Assembly: GCA_029866025.1 (NCBI GenBank)
Contig: JARXAD010000011.1
Location: 24,306-88,305, forward strand
DNA: 64,000 nt
Direction: 5' to 3'
DNA from: Vampirovibrionales bacterium
Lineage (GTDB): Bacteria; Cyanobacteriota; Vampirovibrionia; Vampirovibrionales; Vampirovibrionaceae
In this document: in pieces, positions 16,052-59,265 of the stretch
How positions within the stretch are numbered: position 1 is the stretch's first letter
Layout of the letters: every line of letters starts with the position of its first letter
The notes under the pieces: model-generated
Seen by the model: the letters and a program-made list of their open reading frames with translations, nothing else
The model's database searches: none
Told to the model about the DNA's origin: nothing
Program-made: the position numbers and the translations under genes

Positions 16052-16774
16052 GTGATCCGTCGCATGAACACCGGCTTTGGTAACTCGTCCGAACTTCGCA
16101 TTTTTATTGTGGATGACAACGCCAACCACAGCACCGGCATTAAACAGTTGCTGGAAATTCAAAGCGGTTACAGCGTGGTGGGCATTGCTACCAACGGAGA
16201 CGAAGCCCTGAAGCGCCTAGAGCACACCGAGTGCGATGTGGTACTGATGGATATGAACATGCCGGAACTTGACGGCGTTGCCACCATCCAGCAGCTCATT
16301 TCCAAAAATCCTCGCGTTAAAATTCTAACCCTCACCGGTTATGATGACCCCGACCTCATCTTTCGTGCTATGCGCAGCGGTGCCAAGGGCTACATCCTCA
16401 AAACCATGATTACATCGCAACTGATTAACGCCATTGAAGAAGTGATGGCGGGCAAAGTGTACCTGCCGCCTGCTTTGGCCACCAAGTTCTTTGACGAATT
16501 CACCATCAAAGTGGGTGCCACCAACAAGCCGGACGCTGCCAAGCAAGCGCTTCTCAACTACCTTACCCAGCGTGAGAAAGAAGTGCTAAAGCTACTGACG
16601 GAAGGCATTACCTACCGCGGTGTCGCCGATCACTTAGTCATTAGCGAAACCACCGTCAAAACCCACGTCAACAACATTTTCCAAAAGCTTCAGGTCAACG
16701 ATCGCACCCAAGCCGTCCTCTACGCCATCAAGCATGGCCTCGTCGACGCCACTCCCATCCCCCTTGCCGTCTGA
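16052..16774 (+). CDS. NarL/LuxR-family response regulator (orphan)
   Basis: Receiver domain (IVDD, VLMDMNMP, GAKGYILK) plus LuxR HTH (LTQREKEVL...ISETTVKTHVNNIFQKL). GGAGG RBS 7-8 nt before GTG 16052. Confidence 0.92.
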   Translation: MIRRMNTGFGNSSELRIFIVDDNANHSTGIKQLLEIQSGYSVVGIATNGDEALKRLEHTECDVVLMDMNMPELDGVATIQQLISKNPRVKILTLTGYDDPDLIFRAMRSGAKGYILKTMITSQLINAIEEVMAGKVYLPPALATKFFDEFTIKVGATNKPDAAKQALLNYLTQREKEVLKLLTEGITYRGVADHLVISETTVKTHVNNIFQKLQVNDRTQAVLYAIKHGLVDATPIPLAV

Positions 16775-16863
16775 GGCCAACGGCCTCTTTATTAAAGAGC
16801 ATTTGGCGTAACCCTCTACGGTCCTTGGACTTTAGGAAGCACACAATAATCTCTTTATGAAAA

Positions 16864-17160
16864 ATGCCCTTGGGCATCACTCCCCCCTTAAATAACGGCC
16901 CGTTCGGGCCTTAAACACCCTTCTTCTAGCGAATCGACTCGGTTACTCTGCCGGCGTTTCGGGTTCTCATGGCCCTCCGGTCTTGCTCCCCCTTTGCAAG
17001 CCCACTGGTTATGAACACCAACCCGACACCCACTGTCTCCCTTCCTTTTGGGCCCTAAAAGCGCCCGCCACAACAGGGAAGTAACGACAGCCCCAAGCAG
17101 TTCAACCCCATGGTCGGTTCGCTTTTCCTTTGGCGCCAATGGCGCCCAGCAAGCTGGGTT
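16864..17160. ncRNA. Candidate structured non-coding RNA of unassigned class
   Basis: Occupies a 510-bp gap between convergent genes. Closing helix 16928-16938/17113-17123 (11 bp with one G-U on +) encloses two long hairpins (16953-17030, 17033-17090), with small flanking hairpins. Confidence 0.5.
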
Positions 17161-17233
17161 TATAAAAGCGCATAGGGCGTAATCTTCTACTACTTAAGGA
17201 ATAGACTCAGTATTTCTATAAAGGGCAGCATTC

Positions 17234-17257
17234 AAGGTTGACGTTAACGTCAACCTT
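17234..17257. repeat. Perfect 24-bp palindrome AAGGTTGACGTTAACGTCAACCTT (copy 1)
   Basis: Exact self reverse complement; a 22/24 match occurs at 49442. Confidence 0.85.
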
Positions 17258-17283
17258 AGAGACAAAAGCATGAGCCAAAAGTA

Positions 17284-18672
17284 CTATTTTTGAGTGGTGG
17301 GTTGGGCAGATAGATACTGAGAGTTTTTGGTAATCACGTTGGCCACGGTTTGAGCAAAATTCTGGTAGCGCTCAATGATGTCTTCTGCTTTTTCATTGCC
17401 TTTTCGATTTCCTTCAGATTTCCATTTTTCCACCATTAGACGGATCAATGAATCCACCTCAAAGCGCTTCCTGTGTGGGAATTGATGCGTTACAACGACC
17501 AGTTCCTGTTGCTCCAAGGGCCGATCCAAATGGCCCGCATTCATATCGATATAACGTTTGTAGTCATATACCGGGTCATATTTATTGTCTAAAAACAACG
17601 CTGCGGAAGTGCGTGGCTCTTTTAGTTCGTCTTCTGTGGCCAGTACCGCATGCCACGTGGCACTAATAGGATTTGCCATCCGCTTGGTGGCTAAATCCAT
17701 TTGCCGCCCCAGCTGAATGAGCAATTCTCCGGGCTGGGCTTGGACTTTAATCCACTTGTCTAAGGGAACACTCCGTGCGCCGACTTCCGTTTCCACCTTG
17801 TAGTTAGTGGCAACCGAATGCGGCAACACATACAAGCCTTCTTTTTCACTGGCAGGCAGTACCGTAATGTAGCCGTAGTCCAGATGTGGCTCTAAACGCA
17901 CGTATTGGTCGCCCTCGGTACTGGATAATGTATCCGTAATTGTGGCATTATCTTTTTTTAATTGGTTGGCATCGGGGTAGTAAATTTGTCGCATGGATGC
18001 GCTCGCCGCAACGGGTTTTGTCCCGTATTCCAGAGTGTCGCCAAAAATTTGTTTGGCCAACAATCCATCGGTTTTGCCTTCATAGATGAGGCTAATCACC
18101 TCTATCATATCTTTGGCAGTGGGTTGTAGGGCATCAAACAGGGCAATGCCATTGTTGGTTAGGGCCTCATGACCCTTCATCCACACATTGCTTTCGTGTC
18201 CAACCAAAAATAAGCGTTTCGGGTCGCCCTGTTTTAATTGAAGCCCCCTGAACTGGTTAATGTCCGGCGTATTGTAGGGCCAAAGTTGGTCTAACTCCTG
18301 CTTTAGCACGTTGGCTGTTGTTGCAAAAGAGCGATTGACCAGTTTCTGATCAACCCCATGGTTTATAACCCGAATATAACCGTTTTCTTTTAAGGCCTGT
18401 AGAAATGGGGCCGCTAATTCCATACGCTCTTCGGCTGAGTTGGCAAGAATTAGCTGTGTTTTGAGGTGCTTTAAATCAAATACATTATTGGGCTCACTCA
18501 CATACCCAAAACGAACGGCCTGTAGACGCTGACTGCCGTAAAAGGAAGGTCCCATCTGGTGCAAGCCCAACACCGAAGAAGGGTTAGGAGCAGCCATAGT
18601 TGCTGCTGGATGTAACGCAGGTGTGCGTGATTGCATTTGAAAAACGCTTGGCAGACCCTGAATAACCGTCAT
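17284..18672 (-). CDS. 2-oxoglutarate/Fe(II)-dependent oxygenase (IPNS/2OG-FeII family) with N-terminal extension
   Basis: HLDYGYITVL (HxD), distal WHAV, RTS (RxS), DIOX_N-like GYIRVINHGVD. Confidence 0.85.
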   Translation of the reverse strand: MTVIQGLPSVFQMQSRTPALHPAATMAAPNPSSVLGLHQMGPSFYGSQRLQAVRFGYVSEPNNVFDLKHLKTQLILANSAEERMELAAPFLQALKENGYIRVINHGVDQKLVNRSFATTANVLKQELDQLWPYNTPDINQFRGLQLKQGDPKRLFLVGHESNVWMKGHEALTNNGIALFDALQPTAKDMIEVISLIYEGKTDGLLAKQIFGDTLEYGTKPVAASASMRQIYYPDANQLKKDNATITDTLSSTEGDQYVRLEPHLDYGYITVLPASEKEGLYVLPHSVATNYKVETEVGARSVPLDKWIKVQAQPGELLIQLGRQMDLATKRMANPISATWHAVLATEDELKEPRTSAALFLDNKYDPVYDYKRYIDMNAGHLDRPLEQQELVVVTHQFPHRKRFEVDSLIRLMVEKWKSEGNRKGNEKAEDIIERYQNFAQTVANVITKNSQYLSAQPTTQK

Positions 18673-18855
18673 GATGGATTTCCCCAGTAAGTTCCAATGA
18701 AGTTCCCTTTATGGGACAGATCATGCCGGTAACATGGCAATCGTTCAAGAGAGAGGCAAGAGCCTTGGCTTGCATGTGATGCTTATTATTGCAATACTAT
18801 TTCATTATCGATCATTTTGGCCGCAATTACCCTGCTTTACAGCCTTTATAAACCC

Positions 18856-20451
18856 ATGCCGTCTGTTACCGCTCAACTCAATCATTGGATTGCCCGCCAA
18901 GAAAGTAAGGTGGGCACCTATCAGGTATTCAAGTCCAAGGCCTTTGTACCGTGGCTGGCACCCTTGGGTATTGGGCTGGGTGTAGCAGCCACAGCGTATG
19001 ATGTGGCCCATGCCCCCACCTACGAGCAAAAACACAAGGTGATGGTGCGCGATACCTTAACCATGTTGGGCACGGTGTTGGGTAGCTGGCTGGCCTTTAA
19101 AATAAACACCCCACGCGAATCATCGGCTGCCATTAGTGACAAACGCCTGCCCACGGGCTGGGGATGGGCCGATGCGTGGTACAAAAAAATCACCAAAAGC
19201 GACGGTGTGGACCATGCCCACAGCATTGCCGATAATTTTTTGGAAGCCACCCACAAAGTACGCAGCCCTCTTAATCGCCTAAAAGCTCTGTTTGAATCGC
19301 CCATGCATTCCCACATGGGCAAAGCACTACTCAAGTTGGGGGTGTTGTCGTTTGTACCCATCTTTCTGGGGGGCATTCCTTTTGGGGCACTAGCCGATAA
19401 AATCAACGGCGAAAACTTGGGCCAAACCGTGCCTATGAAGCTAAAAGAAGGCATTTTTCAGTGGGTGGGCAACATTATGTTTTGCACCCTCAGTATTTGG
19501 GCCATGGCCAAGGGCAGCCGTGCGGCTGTTACCAAACTATGGGAAGCATCGCCCAAGTTTCAGCGGTGGATCGAAACCCGTGTCACTTCTCGTTTGGCCC
19601 GTATGGCCGAGGCTTTTAAAGCCTCTAACATAGACTCTCCTCCTTTGGGAGGCATCCCCACAGGCTTAACCACCCCATTGGCGTATCGCATCCGTAATTT
19701 TAAGCACCAACCGGCTTCTAAGCTTATTGAGAGTCTGGAAAATCACTTCTTCAACGATCGGCACCACATGGAAAACGGCAAGCTGATTGATATTCATTAC
19801 TCGTTGTTTGATGGCAAAACAGAGCGACCCTTGATTGAGAAAGAGTGGAGTGCGCTGAAACAGTGGTTAACAGACAACCACACCACTGCCAAAGACACGG
19901 AAAAGCTCAAGCGCCTTCAGCATTTTTACGGGCTGCTAGCGGAAAAGGACTTAACAGGCTTGATGCTTAATAAAGCCAACACCGTGGCAAATTTATCGTT
20001 AACCGCACGGGACGCATTGGGCGATGTGATTGGGGCCGTGAGCGGTGTGGCAGTGGGTATTTTTGGTGGAGCCGTCGTGTCTAATACCCTTAATAGTGTT
20101 ATGAGCAATGTGTTTGGCCTACCCAAAACCCATGAAATGACGGGCTTGTTTAGCAAAGTGCACAATCACCACGGCCAACCGAAAGACGGCGATGGGATTG
20201 GGGCGGGCGCTTTGGGTACTCGAGGCATCCATTGGTGGGATGCGGGCATGCACTTGGATGACTTACCCACCGCGTTGTACATGGCAGGCATGCATGTGAT
20301 TGAATCCGCCATTCAGCTGCTGTATGGGATGAGTGGCTTTATGGCAGGTAATGCGGGTACAAATTACACCGTGCCCCAGTCTCATAACCATCCCCCAGCC
20401 TTAACGCCCCAGCAAATTGCCGCACGATTTAAGCGACTAAGCCAACAATAG
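18856..20451 (+). CDS. Hypothetical multi-pass membrane protein
   Basis: About 531 aa from ATG 18856, with several Gly-rich hydrophobic helices and His-rich patches. Confidence 0.75.
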   Translation: MPSVTAQLNHWIARQESKVGTYQVFKSKAFVPWLAPLGIGLGVAATAYDVAHAPTYEQKHKVMVRDTLTMLGTVLGSWLAFKINTPRESSAAISDKRLPTGWGWADAWYKKITKSDGVDHAHSIADNFLEATHKVRSPLNRLKALFESPMHSHMGKALLKLGVLSFVPIFLGGIPFGALADKINGENLGQTVPMKLKEGIFQWVGNIMFCTLSIWAMAKGSRAAVTKLWEASPKFQRWIETRVTSRLARMAEAFKASNIDSPPLGGIPTGLTTPLAYRIRNFKHQPASKLIESLENHFFNDRHHMENGKLIDIHYSLFDGKTERPLIEKEWSALKQWLTDNHTTAKDTEKLKRLQHFYGLLAEKDLTGLMLNKANTVANLSLTARDALGDVIGAVSGVAVGIFGGAVVSNTLNSVMSNVFGLPKTHEMTGLFSKVHNHHGQPKDGDGIGAGALGTRGIHWWDAGMHLDDLPTALYMAGMHVIESAIQLLYGMSGFMAGNAGTNYTVPQSHNHPPALTPQQIAARFKRLSQQ

Positions 20452-34197: not shown

Positions 34198-34456
34198 GAC
34201 CTTAGTCTACAAGGACTCGGGCTATATTCCAACCGTTCTTTAATAAAAACCCAGCTTGCTGGGAGCGTTATACCTTTCCAATAGGAAAAGGCGTCTCAAC
34301 CGAACCTTTATCAATGGCCCCGTTGGGGCCTGGGAAGAATTACCTAGGGAGCAGGACGAGAAGATGGGTAGTTGTCCTCACGAAGAGCGGCGGAAAAATC
34401 GGTATCTTAATAACATCAACCCACACACCTTCCCACAGCATCAAGGAGATAACCCC

Positions 34457-34888
34457 ATGCACGTTCAGTTTGCTAATAACCCTCATAGCAAAAAACCCTT
34501 TGGCTATGATTCGCCCGACGTAATGCTCGACCAATTTTTAGCTCACCTATTGGGAGATGCCCCCTTGGATACCTACACCCAAACGAGTAATAACGACGTT
34601 AAAAACACTGCCCCATCGGCTCCCAAAGCGGATAGCAAAGCCGGTACTGTGGAAACCGTGCAGCGGGTGTTTAACCCAGCAAAAAACTCTCCCAAAATCC
34701 CAAGTATTGGTTCAGCGGTAAAAATCGGCATCGGATCCTTCATTAAAGCCGCCCTGGTTACACCCTTTTACTTTGTGTGCCGGTTACTGGGCATGCCCAA
34801 GCTAAGTTTTATGCAGCGTGCGGCTGTGATTGGCGGTAACAGCGTGTACCAAGGCTATGTGAAACCCGCTTTTTCCCTAAATGCCTAA
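34457..34888 (+). CDS. Hypothetical protein (N-terminal KPFG motif, C-terminal hydrophobic helices)
   Basis: AAGGAG RBS before ATG 34457; 143 aa. Confidence 0.7.
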   Translation: MHVQFANNPHSKKPFGYDSPDVMLDQFLAHLLGDAPLDTYTQTSNNDVKNTAPSAPKADSKAGTVETVQRVFNPAKNSPKIPSIGSAVKIGIGSFIKAALVTPFYFVCRLLGMPKLSFMQRAAVIGGNSVYQGYVKPAFSLNA

Positions 34889-35048
34889 CCATCGTTTTAC
34901 AGAGAGAGCCCGTGTGTGAACGGGATGTTGCCAAATTCTCCGCCCCCGATGTTAACGCCCTGCCCGGTGCCAACCCCGCAGTAGGCGATTCGGGGATTTC
35001 TTTTTGGGTTTGACGCAAGGCCGGACAGCGCGCTACTCTAGCGTTATT

Positions 35049-49430: not shown

Positions 49431-49441
49431 ATCTTGCCCTC

Positions 49442-49465
49442 AAGGTTGACATTAACGTCAACCAT
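49442..49465. repeat. Near-perfect palindrome AAGGTTGACATTAACGTCAACCAT (copy 2)
   Basis: 22/24 identical to 17234..17257; sits in the 47-bp gap between convergent mpg and nnr. Confidence 0.75.
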
Positions 49466-56298: not shown

Positions 56299-56393
56299 CT
56301 GCGCCCCCAGCAAGCTGGTTTTATAAATAGCATTATGCGTAATCTTCCAATATTTGGGGGGGTTACGCTTTTTAGTGAATAACACCCTTGGGG

Positions 56394-56585
56394 TGCCGAG
56401 GGGCCAGCCCCTCAGCGCTCCCCGCACAGGGACTGCGTCCCTTGTGTATCCCGCAACGGATCTGGGCGACTACTCTCGCGGTTTTCGGGCGTCGCCAGAA
56501 CTGCGGCTACGCTTTGCTTGCCCGCAGACAGGCGTTGTTGGGTTAATGCTAGCGCATTGTAAACCCAACAACCCGCCCTTAACCA
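56394..56585 (+). repeat. ~192-bp palindromic interspersed repeat, copy B
   Basis: Colinear and ungapped with copy C; about 21 mismatches in 192 bp counted by eye. Confidence 0.92.
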
Positions 56586-56663
56586 CGGCAATTAGATAGT
56601 GGAAAGCCCTAAGGGTTTTAAGCATTTACGCACTATGCAAACTATATAAACGCACTTCGTGCG

Positions 56664-56760: not shown

Positions 56761-57120
56761 GAAAGACTTATATATTATTTATATAATAATACAATTCATT
56801 TACACTCCTCCAATCGGCTGACATGAGAAAGAAGGCTGGAACCTAATATGTAACAATTTATTTACAAAGGCGGGTTACAAGGGCTGTAATTGCACGTTGG
56901 GATCTTGAGGTGCTTTAATACACATGACAGACGTGAGTTTACTTATGTTTGTTGGTTCAAGCCATTGAACCGGTGTGAATTAGAGGCGCAGCCTTCAACA
57001 GTATTTGTGGCCAAGACGGTGGAACGTCGATTGCAGGCCACGAAGAAAGGGGACAGGCTGCCGAAACGGTTTTGATGATTGCGGTAACGCAAGCACTCGC
57101 GGGTTTCCACACCCAAGCCG

Positions 57121-59265
57121 TTGGTGATACGGGTTAAATTCCCTGTCACTGTCCAGCACTTGCCTGCTGGGTGCGCTAGTCACTCAATCCCTATCTGGAG
57201 CATTGTTATTCTTACCCGTTTGCCCTTAACGTCTGCTTTTCAGGCAACGGGGGACCCCCAGTTTTTGGGTTCCTCCCCGCATGCCTTGGTTGCGTCGCCC
57301 CCAGCGAAAGCCAAGCCGCTTTCGGCTGCTCATTCAAATAGCCGTGCAACCCAATTTGCAGGTAGTGGGATAATGCAGCAGGTGGGCAACGCCATTCAGG
57401 CCATTCCCCGTTTTTTAGATCACCACATTTACAGCGATCCGGGTATTCGTTACGCCACCGAGCAAACCGTGTGCTTTACGTTGCCGCGCACCGTGGTTCA
57501 GGTAAACCGCAACATTCACGAAACAGGCCTAAAAAATGTGTTGGCCGGTTGGGAACGCTTTCTCAACGATTTTTCGGCGGATATTTTAGACACCTTTGCC
57601 CCCGGCGCTATTGCGTATTTGGGCATTAGCCGCTGGCTGGATAAACGCAAGGGAACCATCACCCACGCCATGATGGGGCAGCAGGCCATGGGGCTGTACA
57701 GCCATATTGGTGCCGAGGCCACCAGCCAAGCCGATTTTTACCACCGCCTGGAAAGCTATTTGCACACCCATGGTTCGGCCACACCCACTGCAGCCAAGCC
57801 CGCGCTTAATCTGCAAGCCACTATTCAGGAATTAATGGAAAAAGAGGCGGCACGCGCGAAGGTACCCTTACTAAAGCGTTGGTTTAGTAACAACCCCATC
57901 AAGACGTTTAAAACCCAGAAAGCCCAGCAGTTGGCCAGCCAGCTAGGCCACACCCAGTTGGAATTAACCCTACCTTATGCTGACGCTTTTGGCCACGAAG
58001 CCACTCGGCTTAAGCGCCAGGCCAGCATTGCCATTCCCGATCTTCTCTCTGACCTTAAAATCATTCAGCGGCATTTAAGCAACGCGGCCCCCCATGCAAA
58101 CCAGCTAAAAACCACGGAAGCCTTTGGCAAGCGTCTGGTTCACTTAATGGATACCACTCACACCGCAGCCAAGCACCACATGTGGGCCAATGCCATGGCC
58201 TTGGTAGCCAGTTTAGCCATGCCCTTTATCAGCCGATTGATTACCAAAGCCGTTGCTGGAGATGACCGGAACCCAGCCACCCAAGCGCTGCAAGAGCATT
58301 ACGGCACGGATAGCTTACTGAAAAAAGCCGTCCCTCACCCGCATCGCGCCACGGCAACTTTTGGCCAGCAAGCTGGTGATGAAAAAGAAATTAAACAACC
58401 GTGGTGGCACTTTGGGATGGGCAGATCCGCAACCAACTCGTCCACTAAAAAGGCGTCCGTTGGACGCTTTGTGTGGTTTCCGTATTTGTCTGAGTGCTGG
58501 AAGGAAGGGAAAATCACCCCGATGGCCATTACCGCGGCCTTTTTTGGGGCCTTGGGCTTTATGGTCAACCGGCGCTTTAGCAAACAGGGCCTTAGTTTTT
58601 TTAAACCCAAAGATTTGCTCAAAGTGTACGAATTTCAACGTGGCTTTCCGTGGACCACCGTGGCCCAAATGGAACTAACCTACGGGTTGCTGTGTGGCTT
58701 CCGTCTGTTGTCGGCTCGCGACCAAGGCGACTGGCAGGAAGCCGCCCTGCGGGATGCCTTCCTTGGTTGGCCCACCCTCACCTACGGCTTTGAGGCCATT
58801 CGTAAAGGCCTCATGCGCGGCGGCAACACCCTGCTGAAGAAGGTGGTTCAGCGGGGCTCCCAAGATGCTGCCAGTAAATTTCACAATCTAACAATACCTG
58901 AGACCGCCCAATGGATGAGTCACGGCGTTGAAAAGAACGCTAAATTTTGGCAACCCGAATTTTGGGGCACCCCTCGTGCCCGCGATGAAATAACCCAAGA
59001 GTTGCTGACCCATACTGTTCCTGCCAGCTGGAGCCTTGAGGCCGTAGGGAAACTAACCCAGTACACTCAACGTGTGCAGGAGTGGATTACGTTAGCGTCT
59101 GCGGCCATGTCCGTGACGTTATTGTCGTATTTAGAGCCCAAGTGGGGCATTCAAATGACCACTGCACTGGAAACCAAGCGGTATCATACCAAGTTGGGTC
59201 ATGTTATCCGGCGGTTAACTGCACAAAACAGCAATCCAAGCCCCAGCATGAATGTTAATTTTTAG
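57121..59265 (+). CDS. Large hypothetical membrane protein
   Basis: Up to 714 aa with several hydrophobic helices; N-terminal block similar to the 1..1179 protein. True start uncertain. Confidence 0.75.
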   Translation: MVIRVKFPVTVQHLPAGCASHSIPIWSIVILTRLPLTSAFQATGDPQFLGSSPHALVASPPAKAKPLSAAHSNSRATQFAGSGIMQQVGNAIQAIPRFLDHHIYSDPGIRYATEQTVCFTLPRTVVQVNRNIHETGLKNVLAGWERFLNDFSADILDTFAPGAIAYLGISRWLDKRKGTITHAMMGQQAMGLYSHIGAEATSQADFYHRLESYLHTHGSATPTAAKPALNLQATIQELMEKEAARAKVPLLKRWFSNNPIKTFKTQKAQQLASQLGHTQLELTLPYADAFGHEATRLKRQASIAIPDLLSDLKIIQRHLSNAAPHANQLKTTEAFGKRLVHLMDTTHTAAKHHMWANAMALVASLAMPFISRLITKAVAGDDRNPATQALQEHYGTDSLLKKAVPHPHRATATFGQQAGDEKEIKQPWWHFGMGRSATNSSTKKASVGRFVWFPYLSECWKEGKITPMAITAAFFGALGFMVNRRFSKQGLSFFKPKDLLKVYEFQRGFPWTTVAQMELTYGLLCGFRLLSARDQGDWQEAALRDAFLGWPTLTYGFEAIRKGLMRGGNTLLKKVVQRGSQDAASKFHNLTIPETAQWMSHGVEKNAKFWQPEFWGTPRARDEITQELLTHTVPASWSLEAVGKLTQYTQRVQEWITLASAAMSVTLLSYLEPKWGIQMTTALETKRYHTKLGHVIRRLTAQNSNPSPSMNVNF

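Follow-up and report, generated by a model that had tools for sequence, protein, structure and literature searches.

Base-pairing small RNAs (sRNAs) with C-rich motifs are well known in the Firmicutes, where RsaE/RoxS and the UCCC loops of Staphylococcus aureus RNAIII pair with G-rich sites. The Vampirovibrionales and Melainabacteria are a predatory or fermentative, non-photosynthetic sister group of the cyanobacteria, and in the literature on Vampirovibrio, the Vampirovibrionales, or the Melainabacteria no description of a regulatory or non-coding RNA was found. The cyanobacterial sRNA Yfr1 has a length of 54-69 nt and consists of two stem-loops with 16-20 unpaired nucleotides between them, including ACUCCUCACAC, the 3' hairpin being followed by a U-tail (PMC2190773; PMC6778093). 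The subject of this report is a locus at positions 16864-17160 of a 64,000-nt stretch of DNA from a Vampirovibrionales bacterium (GenBank assembly GCA_029866025.1, contig JARXAD010000011.1, positions 24,306 to 88,305; hereafter the window), which lies between the convergent genes for a NarL/LuxR-type response regulator (RR) and an oxygenase. A first-pass annotation, made from the sequence alone, had proposed a multi-stem RNA at this position. The analysis presented here supports a stand-alone structured non-coding RNA (ncRNA) that, as judged from sequence and predicted fold, belongs to no known family and is known from two genomes. The locus is very probably a real element that is selectively maintained at the RNA level.

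With respect to known families, a search of the entire window against Rfam 15 yielded only a lysine riboswitch and two tRNAs above the gathering score, none of them near the locus. When the region from 16700 to 17350 was searched on both strands with relaxed filters and E ≤ 10, only two meaningless matches to small nucleolar RNA models were returned, and a search of 27 related loci gave nothing relevant. Likewise, no tRNA or transfer-messenger RNA (tmRNA) was detected at the locus by ARAGORN. The first-pass annotation had called for the Rfam scan as a check and had noted the absence of RNase P, tmRNA, and signal recognition particle (SRP) signatures, in which the family covariance models and ARAGORN bear it out. 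The 6S, SRP, RNase P, and tmRNA families, riboswitches, the large ncRNA classes, and the cyanobacterial sRNAs in Rfam are excluded at the model level.

The significance of the fold was evaluated by comparing the minimum-free-energy (MFE) structure with those of 200 dinucleotide shuffles. On the (+) strand, the segment from 16864 to 17160 has a predicted energy of -107.9 kcal/mol as compared to -86.1 ± 4.7 kcal/mol for the shuffled sequences (z = -4.66), and none of the 200 shuffles was as good. For the core delimited by the closing helix, P1, the z-scores are -4.9 in the window and -5.9 in the one close relative, L087, described below. P1 is formed by AGCGAATCGAC (16928-16938) and GTCGGTTCGCT (17113-17123), which provide 11 base pairs, one of them U.G. 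Inside P1 lie P2 (GGUU/AACC) and P3 (CUGC/GCAG), and the 5' strands of the three closing helices, with P1 represented by AGCGAAUCGAC, extend from 16928 to 16951. The overall architecture in both the MFE and the consensus folds is that of a three-way junction from which two long arms emanate, the linkers being 1, 1, and 6 nt long. Arm B (16953-17031), a long hairpin interrupted by two internal loops, has an apical loop, UCCCCCUUU, at 16986-16994. Arm A (17033-17090) begins with a base helix, CUGUC/GACAG, followed by CUUCCUUUUGGGC paired with GCC-CAA-CAGGGAAG. The 3' strands, namely GCAG of P3, AACC of P2, and GUCGGUUCGCU of P1, run directly into a U-rich tail, UUUUCCUUU (17123-17131), and together with it occupy 17097-17131.

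On the 5' side of this domain, hairpin 1 (AUGCCC-UU-GGGCAU, 16864-16877) is followed by an unpaired C-rich stretch, CACUCCCCCCUUAAAUAAC (16878-16896), by hairpin 2 (GGCCC-GUUC-GGGCC, 16897-16910), and by the stretch UUAAACACCCUUCUUCU (16911-16927) immediately preceding P1, which is unpaired in the consensus fold. On the 3' side there are two hairpins, GGCGCC-AAU-GGCGCC and CCCAGC-AA-GCUGGG, followed by UUUAUAA; these constitute a predicted intrinsic terminator at 17132-17165. Every helix named in the first-pass annotation, namely P1, GGTT/AACC, CTGC/GCAG, both arms, and the small hairpins, is present in the sequence and in the MFE fold. Its coordinates agree with those given here for P1, Arm A, and the hairpins at 16864-16877 and 16897-16910, and differ by a single nucleotide for Arm B, which here ends at 17031, and for the 3' hairpin, which here spans 17145-17158.

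One of the readings offered in the first-pass annotation, that of a divergent 6S-like RNA, is not sustained by this architecture. As in 6S RNA, the 5' and 3' portions of the molecule form a long closing stem with interruptions (P1-P2-P3), and the length of the core, ~200 nt, is comparable. In contrast to 6S RNA, however, the locus shows no large central bubble, and two arms arise from a tight junction in place of one terminal stem. No match to RF00013 or to related models was obtained at E ≤ 10.

The strongest evidence for selection comes from the comparison with L087, a 2268-nt JGI metagenome contig that was reached through P0127, a cluster member of the RR. Related loci were collected by way of the RR gene (80 from GTDB, 80 from metagenomes, and nine from exact protein look-ups). 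Among these, the RNA was found in L087 alone by blastn, nhmmer, and a covariance model, R1, built from the window and L087, and no match was observed in plasmid or viral collections. The arrangement in L087 is the same as that in the window, with the RR followed by the gap and the oxygenase. The two RR proteins differ by one residue, yet 58 of 237 third codon positions (24.5%) differ, which implies substantial neutral divergence between the two genomes. Against this background, only 15 of 223 alignment columns differ in the core at 16911-17133 (93% identity; binomial p = 3e-12 versus the third-position rate). The flanks are only 54% (16775-16911) and 59% (17134-17283) identical over the length of the window sequence, with many insertions and deletions.

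The distribution of these 15 differences follows the predicted fold. With the consensus fold, none of the 122 paired columns differs as opposed to 15 of the 101 unpaired ones (Fisher p = 4e-6); when the fold of the window alone is used for the count, one terminal U.G pair is lost. In the closing helices, all paired positions are the same in L087 and the sole change, at 16946, lies in an internal loop. P1 and its tail are likewise identical, and the Arm B substitutions at 16976 and 16978 fall in an internal loop. The base helix of Arm A reads CUGUC/GACAG in the window. Its L087 version, CUGUUUC/GAAACAG, is two base pairs longer, owing to an inserted TT in the 5' strand and matching substitutions in the 3' strand. 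Three flanking hairpins retain their shapes with altered sequences. These are the RR terminator (GAGGCC/GGCCUC versus GCGUCC/GGACGC in L087), hairpin 2 (GGCCC/GGGCC versus AAGCC/GGCUU, the latter around a UUUA loop), and the 3' hairpin (GGCGCC/GGCGCC versus GCCCACC/GGUGGGC). Sixteen of the 17 nucleotides of UUAAACACCCUUCUUCU are the same, and the counterpart of the more distal C-rich stretch is UCACUCCCCC-UAAAUAA. Hairpin 1, however, is specific to the window and lies within a segment of ~30 nt that is missing from L087. The boundaries suggested earlier, 16864 and 17160, were thus approximately correct: strong conservation spans the unit 16911-17133, which is preceded by a conserved unpaired CACUCCCCCC at 16878-16887, and the terminator ends at ~17163.

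Comparison of the same intergenic region in relatives had been proposed as a check in the first-pass annotation, and its outcome, a conserved core with changes confined to unpaired positions and one helix compensated, is favorable to the RNA. Some caution is warranted. There are two sequences only, at 93% identity; the covariation rests on one helix and three flanking hairpins, and the consensus fold employed for the paired/unpaired count was derived from the same two sequences. Even so, nucleotide-level selection, substitutions at unpaired positions only, and a helix change compensated on both of its strands make the locus a well-supported RNA candidate.

Protein-coding explanations for the conservation were considered and rejected. 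The sole sizeable open reading frame (ORF), of 83 codons on the (-) strand, is frameshifted in L087, and in the half that is shared in frame the three nucleotide changes are all non-synonymous. The ORFs on the (+) strand are short and are disrupted by the 2-nt insertion/deletion. The frameshift and the non-synonymous changes indicate that conservation acts on nucleotides or structure rather than on codons.

Could the similarity reflect the recent spread of a DNA-level or mobile element, such as a recombination site or an insertion resembling a miniature inverted-repeat transposable element (MITE)? In formal terms, the 11 bp of P1 qualify as an imperfect terminal inverted repeat. Moreover, 32-nt direct repeats flank the locus in the window (16788 and 17159), and where relatives have the kinase gene after the RR the window has the element and the oxygenase. 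Such an origin is nevertheless extremely improbable. The element occupies the same position in two genomes with diverged flanks and so predates their split, yet it is still 93% identical. The conservation continues past the inverted repeat at either end, L087 lacks the direct repeat on the right, and the avoidance of paired positions by substitutions, along with the compensated helix change, bespeaks selection at the RNA level. There was no viral or plasmid match. Membership in a MITE or repeat family was also rejected, there being a single copy in the 64-kb window, none in the ~0.8 Mb of related loci, and no duplication flanking P1.

The assignment of the functional strand is a separate matter. 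The z-score is -4.7 for the (+) strand as compared to -1.1 to -2.2 for the (-) strand, but this difference is largely a composition effect since the mirrored (-) strand fold is nearly as stable (-73.5 versus -74.7 kcal/mol). Nor does the counting of G.U pairs settle the issue, which the first-pass annotation, with a tally of four versus two in favor of the (+) strand, had likewise left undecided. The (+) fold contains five G.U pairs, four of which lie inside helices and would become C.A mismatches on the opposite strand, whereas the (-) fold gains seven, with five of these extending helix ends and two falling in refolded parts. More telling is the position of the U-tracts. On the (+) strand P1 leads directly into UUUUCCUUU, whereas no U-tract lies 3' of P1 on the (-) strand. 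The hairpin CCCAGCAAGCUGGG with UUUAU (17145-17163) is a recurrent terminator of this genome that lies here in the (+) orientation. Indeed, CCCAGCAAGCTGGG with a T-run occurs in the same orientation 3' of a GTPase gene (56303) and 3' of a tRNA gene on the (-) strand (61601-61580). At the equivalent place in L087, GCCCACC-AAA-GGUGGGC followed by CUUUAUAUU is flagged as a (+) strand terminator. The (+) strand is favored by the U-tract adjoining the closing helix and by the terminator beyond it, which recurs in this genome; there are good grounds, short of certainty, for regarding this strand as the functional one.

A transcript of the (-) strand would start at ~17155 and end at the hairpin 16910-16897 with GUUAUUU, and could represent either a G/A-rich sRNA, such as a sponge of the CsrA/RsmA type, or the distal 3' untranslated region (UTR) of the oxygenase mRNA. 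In addition to the near equality of the two folds and the seven G.U pairs gained, two observations speak for this strand and against the one chosen. Hairpin 2 resembles a weak terminator when read on the (-) strand, and in the window as in L087 the hairpin at this place precedes a T-rich run in that direction. The (-) strand of both genomes also carries TATAAA-like sequences, located right of the core. A start after TATAAA in L087, however, would fall within the compensated 3' hairpin, which with its T-run is a (+) strand terminator. A separate terminator-like palindrome at 17234-17257, ahead of the core and flagged as such in L087, belongs to the oxygenase, and conservation reaches leftwards to CACUCCCCCC at 16878-16887, beyond the would-be (-) strand terminator. 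The CsrA-sponge proposal of the first-pass annotation fares poorly on its own terms, given that GGA occurs six times on the (-) strand as compared to 8.8 ± 2.0 in shuffled sequences and only once in an apical loop; the terminators, too, favor the (+) strand. The (+) strand itself is C-rich, in contrast to the many GGA motifs, mostly in hairpin loops, that characterize the transcribed strand of CsrB/RsmZ-type RNAs. On balance, a (-) strand RNA is very unlikely.

Transcription of the (+) strand RNA would begin from a promoter within 16788-16860 or, less likely, result from read-through of the RR gene. The RR gene is followed by a hairpin, GAGGCC-AAC-GGCCTC, with TTTATT (16773-16793), which was identified by a terminator scan and has its counterpart in the GCGTCC-GAA-GGACGC of L087; it would separate the regulator mRNA from the RNA gene. 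A scan for promoters with a consensus of the E. coli type gave nothing at the locus, a result that weighs against an independent gene. At 16788-16819 on the (+) strand lies a 32-nt motif, TTTATTAAAGAGCATTTGGCGTAACCCTCTAC, in which a -10-like TAAYNY is preceded by CG. Copies of it at 17159-17190 and 56320-56350, like that at 16788-16819, lie just 3' of a terminator hairpin, and none would be expected by chance. The CGTAAYNYTCTA block at 16806-16818, which contains the -10-like sequence, is partly conserved, with CGTAA..TCTA and the subsequent TCCTTGG retained in L087. On these grounds the 32-nt motif is a candidate promoter; its use would place the start at ~16820 and give an RNA of ~345 nt (~310 nt in L087). 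L087 does not retain a second promoter candidate, TTGGAC-N16-TAATCT (16825-16852). The 3' end would be either the U-tract after P1 (~17131), a possible first termination point, or the following hairpin and T-run (~17163). With its ends predicted in this manner, the RNA would be about 300-345 nt in length; the widest estimate is about 220-345 nt.

The 32-nt motif is also part of a longer intergenic repeat of ~54 nt, found at 17145-17190 and 56303-56350, that consists of the hairpin CCCAGCAAGCTGGG and then TTTATAAA..GCAT..GCGTAATCTTC; the full copies are 80% identical. The 32-nt portion alone follows the RR terminator (16788-16819), and the copy at 17159-17190 is absent from L087. The repeat may be a promoter or a regulator-binding site set directly after terminators.

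Orthologs of the RR gene in other Vampirovibrionales provide a broader context. In most of them the kinase gene is located directly 3' of the RR gene. In several lineages, however, the orthologous RR gene is followed on the (+) strand by a structured, U-tailed element composed of a hairpin, an unpaired C-rich stretch of 17-23 nt, and a stem with a U-tail. The best represented of these, referred to as type B, is an RNA of ~150 nt between the RR and kinase genes in L007 (3758-3930; GCA_030429585.1), which is also represented by L004 (5767-5939), and in L170 (1070-1221). It displays a hairpin, 17 invariant unpaired nucleotides, UCCUUUUCACAACCUUA, and a rod of 125 nt that has GGCGAAUUG/CAAUUCGCC as its closing helix and is followed by a long U-run (z = -4.77). 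Between L007 and L170, blocks of 13-17 nt are 100% identical, whereas 46% of the RR third positions differ; two pairs show compensatory changes and one goes from U-A to U.G. In L088 (2240-2335) a hairpin, 18 unpaired C-rich nucleotides, ACCCCCAAUUUACCCCCUA, and a terminator are observed (z = -4.2), and in L020 (3771-3960) a 190-nt rod with a U-tail lies 3' of a TATAAAAT box (z = -4.55). None of the three has an Rfam match. Two further observations were set aside. A match of the type B profile in L001 (nhmmer, E = 0.003) overlaps a coding start and was judged spurious, and ACTCC, which occurs 3' of the RR gene in 14 of 55 loci as compared to ~10% expected, was not used because the loci are non-independent and some occurrences lie in the kinase coding region.

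The elements of type B, L088, and L020 share with the window RNA their position and strand relative to the RR gene and the succession of a hairpin, an unpaired C/U stretch, and a terminal-helix domain with a U-tract. Short words are shared as well: GCGAAU/UUCGC in the closing helix, CUGUC at the start of the inner stem in the window, L087, L007, and L170, and CUUUUCAC in L087 and type B. Type B differs in having a 125-nt rod without Arm B and in being followed by a histidine kinase gene, which is absent from the window. Weighing against kinship, neither blastn nor nhmmer detected any similarity between the window RNA and these elements, and the score of R1 on the L007 element, 9.1 bits (E = 1.3), is at the level of a plain terminator. 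Homology of the window RNA with the RNAs of other lineages is possible and unproven.

The recurrence of U-tailed structures after orthologous RR genes, on the same strand and regardless of the downstream gene (that for HisKA in L007, L170, and L168, and the convergent oxygenase gene in the window), is what would be expected of a cis-acting 3' element of the RR transcript. According to this explanation the structure has no promoter of its own. It would serve as a 3'UTR or tandem terminator affecting stability or read-through, and perhaps as a source of a 3'UTR-derived sRNA. In L007 the first hairpin is the RR terminator itself, in L087 the hairpin after the RR stop codon has a poor U-run such that read-through is plausible, and the failure to find a consensus promoter fits as well. 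Nonetheless, in the window a good terminator at 16773-16793 stands 80-150 nt ahead of the conserved RNA, and the partly conserved block between the two resembles a promoter. Furthermore, 223 conserved nucleotides are unnecessary for a stability element, and many relatives with the kinase gene directly after the RR gene manage without one. This explanation is decidedly unlikely, and an independent ncRNA gene on the (+) strand of the RR-oxygenase gap is the interpretation preferred here.

As to how such an RNA might function, the layout suggests a model. Short 5' hairpins are followed by the exposed C/U-rich stretches CACUCCCCCC and UUAAACACCCUUCUUCU and then by the P1-P2-P3 domain leading to Arm B, with its loop UCCCCCUUU, and to Arm A. 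The exposed stretches at 16878-16896 and 16911-16927 and the loop at 16986-16994, here designated candidate seeds 1, 2, and 3, would pair with G-rich sites in target mRNAs, such as Shine-Dalgarno regions, in the manner of Yfr1 and of the C-rich Firmicutes sRNAs. The large domain closed by P1 would act as a stabilizing and terminating scaffold. All three candidate seeds are kept in L087, again in a comparison of two sequences only. Two findings tell against this model: a 200-nt three-way-junction domain is far more elaborate than a base-pairing sRNA usually needs, and the recurrence of CTCCC to which the first-pass annotation drew attention (three occurrences versus 1.2 expected, p ~ 0.11) is not significant. 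In fact, no enrichment of GGA, CTCCC, TCCC, or CCCC motifs was observed at the locus. Given the lack of enrichment, the two sequences, and a junction domain beyond what the mechanism demands, a trans-acting regulatory RNA that operates through its C/U-rich stretches is put forward tentatively, at somewhat less than an even chance.

An alternative is a protein-binding or structural RNA, for example, part of a ribonucleoprotein, a decoy, or a ribozyme-like molecule, in which the junction domain itself would be functional and the C/U stretches would provide protein or tertiary contacts. Nearly all of the 223-nt core is conserved, loops and linkers included (93% versus ~75% at third positions), the three-way junction is compact, and the RNA is larger and more complex than base-pairing sRNAs typically are. 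Conservation of loops is weak evidence at such low divergence, however, and Rfam 15 offers no counterpart among 6S, SRP, RNase P, tmRNA, or the large ncRNA classes. Only two closely related genomes are known to contain the RNA, a very narrow distribution, and no conserved partner gene adjoins it. A structural role is accordingly regarded as unlikely. Equally doubtful is a more ambitious proposal, namely that the locus represents a new class of large structured ncRNAs, confined to a Vampirovibrionales lineage and built on a three-way-junction core of at least 220 nt. Its domain would have arisen from the elaborated terminator stem of RR-linked, C-rich sRNAs and would since have taken on a separate role, for example in binding a protein or ligand. 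That sRNA family would itself be a possible counterpart of the cyanobacterial Yfr1-type sRNAs. Of the functional proposals, base pairing in trans is the one retained in what follows.

The genes surrounding the RNA are of an ordinary chromosomal nature and include those for the Tad pilus, DUF192, RF3, MutL, and a GTPase. The RR, which contains receiver and GerE domains, likely starts at 16064 and ends with a TGA codon at 16772-16774 on the (+) strand. The 2-oxoglutarate-Fe(II)/isopenicillin-N-synthase-like oxygenase gene runs from 18672 to 17284 on the (-) strand. The ends of both genes are as given in the first-pass annotation, and the gap between them is 509 bp. Relatives of the RR are encoded by metagenome-assembled genomes of the Vampirovibrionales and Melainabacteria, with 85% identity to that of GCA_030429585.1 and 74-81% to those of several assemblies labeled "Vampirovibrionales bacterium" or Vampirovibrio. 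In these relatives the gene order is DUF192 (-), RR (+), HisKA kinase (+), and an alpha/beta hydrolase (+). By comparison with L004, L006, L168, and L171, the RR in the window is an orphan, there being no kinase gene in the window and the RNA locus and a rare oxygenase taking its place. Also present where relatives carry the kinase and hydrolase is a 544-residue ORF (18817-20451) with no Pfam match. Close relatives of the oxygenase were not found in GTDB genomes, and the protein database contained just four distant homologs; the loci of these, L001-L003, show no similar RNA. The palindrome at 17234-17257 on the (-) strand, AAGGTTGACGTTAACGTCAACCTT, is kept in L087 and flagged there as a (-) strand terminator. 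It is probably the terminator of the convergent oxygenase gene and would mark the right boundary of the RNA locus, outside of the RNA. It comprises 24 nt and is perfect at 17234, after the oxygenase stop codon; a second copy at 49441-49463 has one mismatch.

Three additional features of the window were recorded. The lysine riboswitch (56973-57186, (+) strand, 73.5 bits) lies upstream of a 714-residue ORF without a Pfam match. Approximately 350 nt before it, and directly 3' of the third copy of the 32-nt repeat, is a second structured intergenic stretch (56352-56626, (+) strand, z = -3.45) that has no Rfam match and may be another ncRNA or a long leader. Finally, the recurrent terminator hairpin with its T-run appears on the (-) strand at 34244-34266, where no ORF of at least 70 residues ends ahead of it. 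The overlapping (+) strand ORF of 210 residues is without a Pfam match, and the terminator copy and the adjoining stretch at 34270-35000 may reflect an unannotated small gene or RNA.

The significance of the RNA depends upon its relationships. The locus points to a recurring habit in which a structured, C-rich, terminator-ended RNA is placed right after a highly conserved NarL-type RR gene. If the RR-linked RNAs are related, they would show a small sRNA growing a large structured domain, and the regulon of that two-component system could be approached through them. If this is only a lineage-specific sRNA, it is one among many and of local interest. Interest would rise should the RR-linked RNAs prove to be one evolving family, or should the large domain have its own function. 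For now the RNA is best described as a new one within a familiar general kind, and its distribution, as far as known, is very narrow.

That general kind is the intergenic sRNA with an intrinsic terminator: the locus is non-coding and ends on the (+) strand in a predicted Rho-independent terminator. The resemblance to the C-rich sRNAs of the Firmicutes lies in several exposed C-rich motifs, both in a loop and in single-stranded linkers, in the possible pairing with Shine-Dalgarno sequences, and in the intrinsic terminator at the end. Here, in contrast, there is no sequence or model match, the phylum is another, the domain is much larger, and the motif is not enriched.

The comparison with Yfr1, and with the looser Yfr10 group, begins with the cyanobacterial phylum in its broad sense. 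The window segment from 16864 to 16910 contains two stem-loops with 19 unpaired C-rich nucleotides between them, starting with CACUCC. Hairpin 2, the 17 unpaired nucleotides that follow it, and the U-tailed P1 domain repeat the same logic on a larger scale. There are, however, distinct differences. The conserved unit in the window is 223 nt with a three-way junction as opposed to ~60 nt, stem-loop 1 is absent from L087, and the second hairpin (16897-16910) has no U-tail. The undecamer is not at the locus, where CACUCCCCCC has only ACUCC in common with it, and in the window as a whole no exact match and just two matches with one mismatch were found, both away from the locus. Elsewhere among the related loci the undecamer (motif as given in PMC2190773) is exact in L173 (1033-1043) and matches at 10 of 11 positions in L169 (2927-2936). 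In each case it is unpaired in a hairpin loop and lies 35-45 nt past the stop codon of the orthologous RR gene, and these are the sole occurrences of the 10-mer in the 173 loci. L173 and L169 may encode a Yfr1-like sRNA in non-photosynthetic relatives of the cyanobacteria. For the RNA in the window the connection with Yfr1 is a lead rather than membership.

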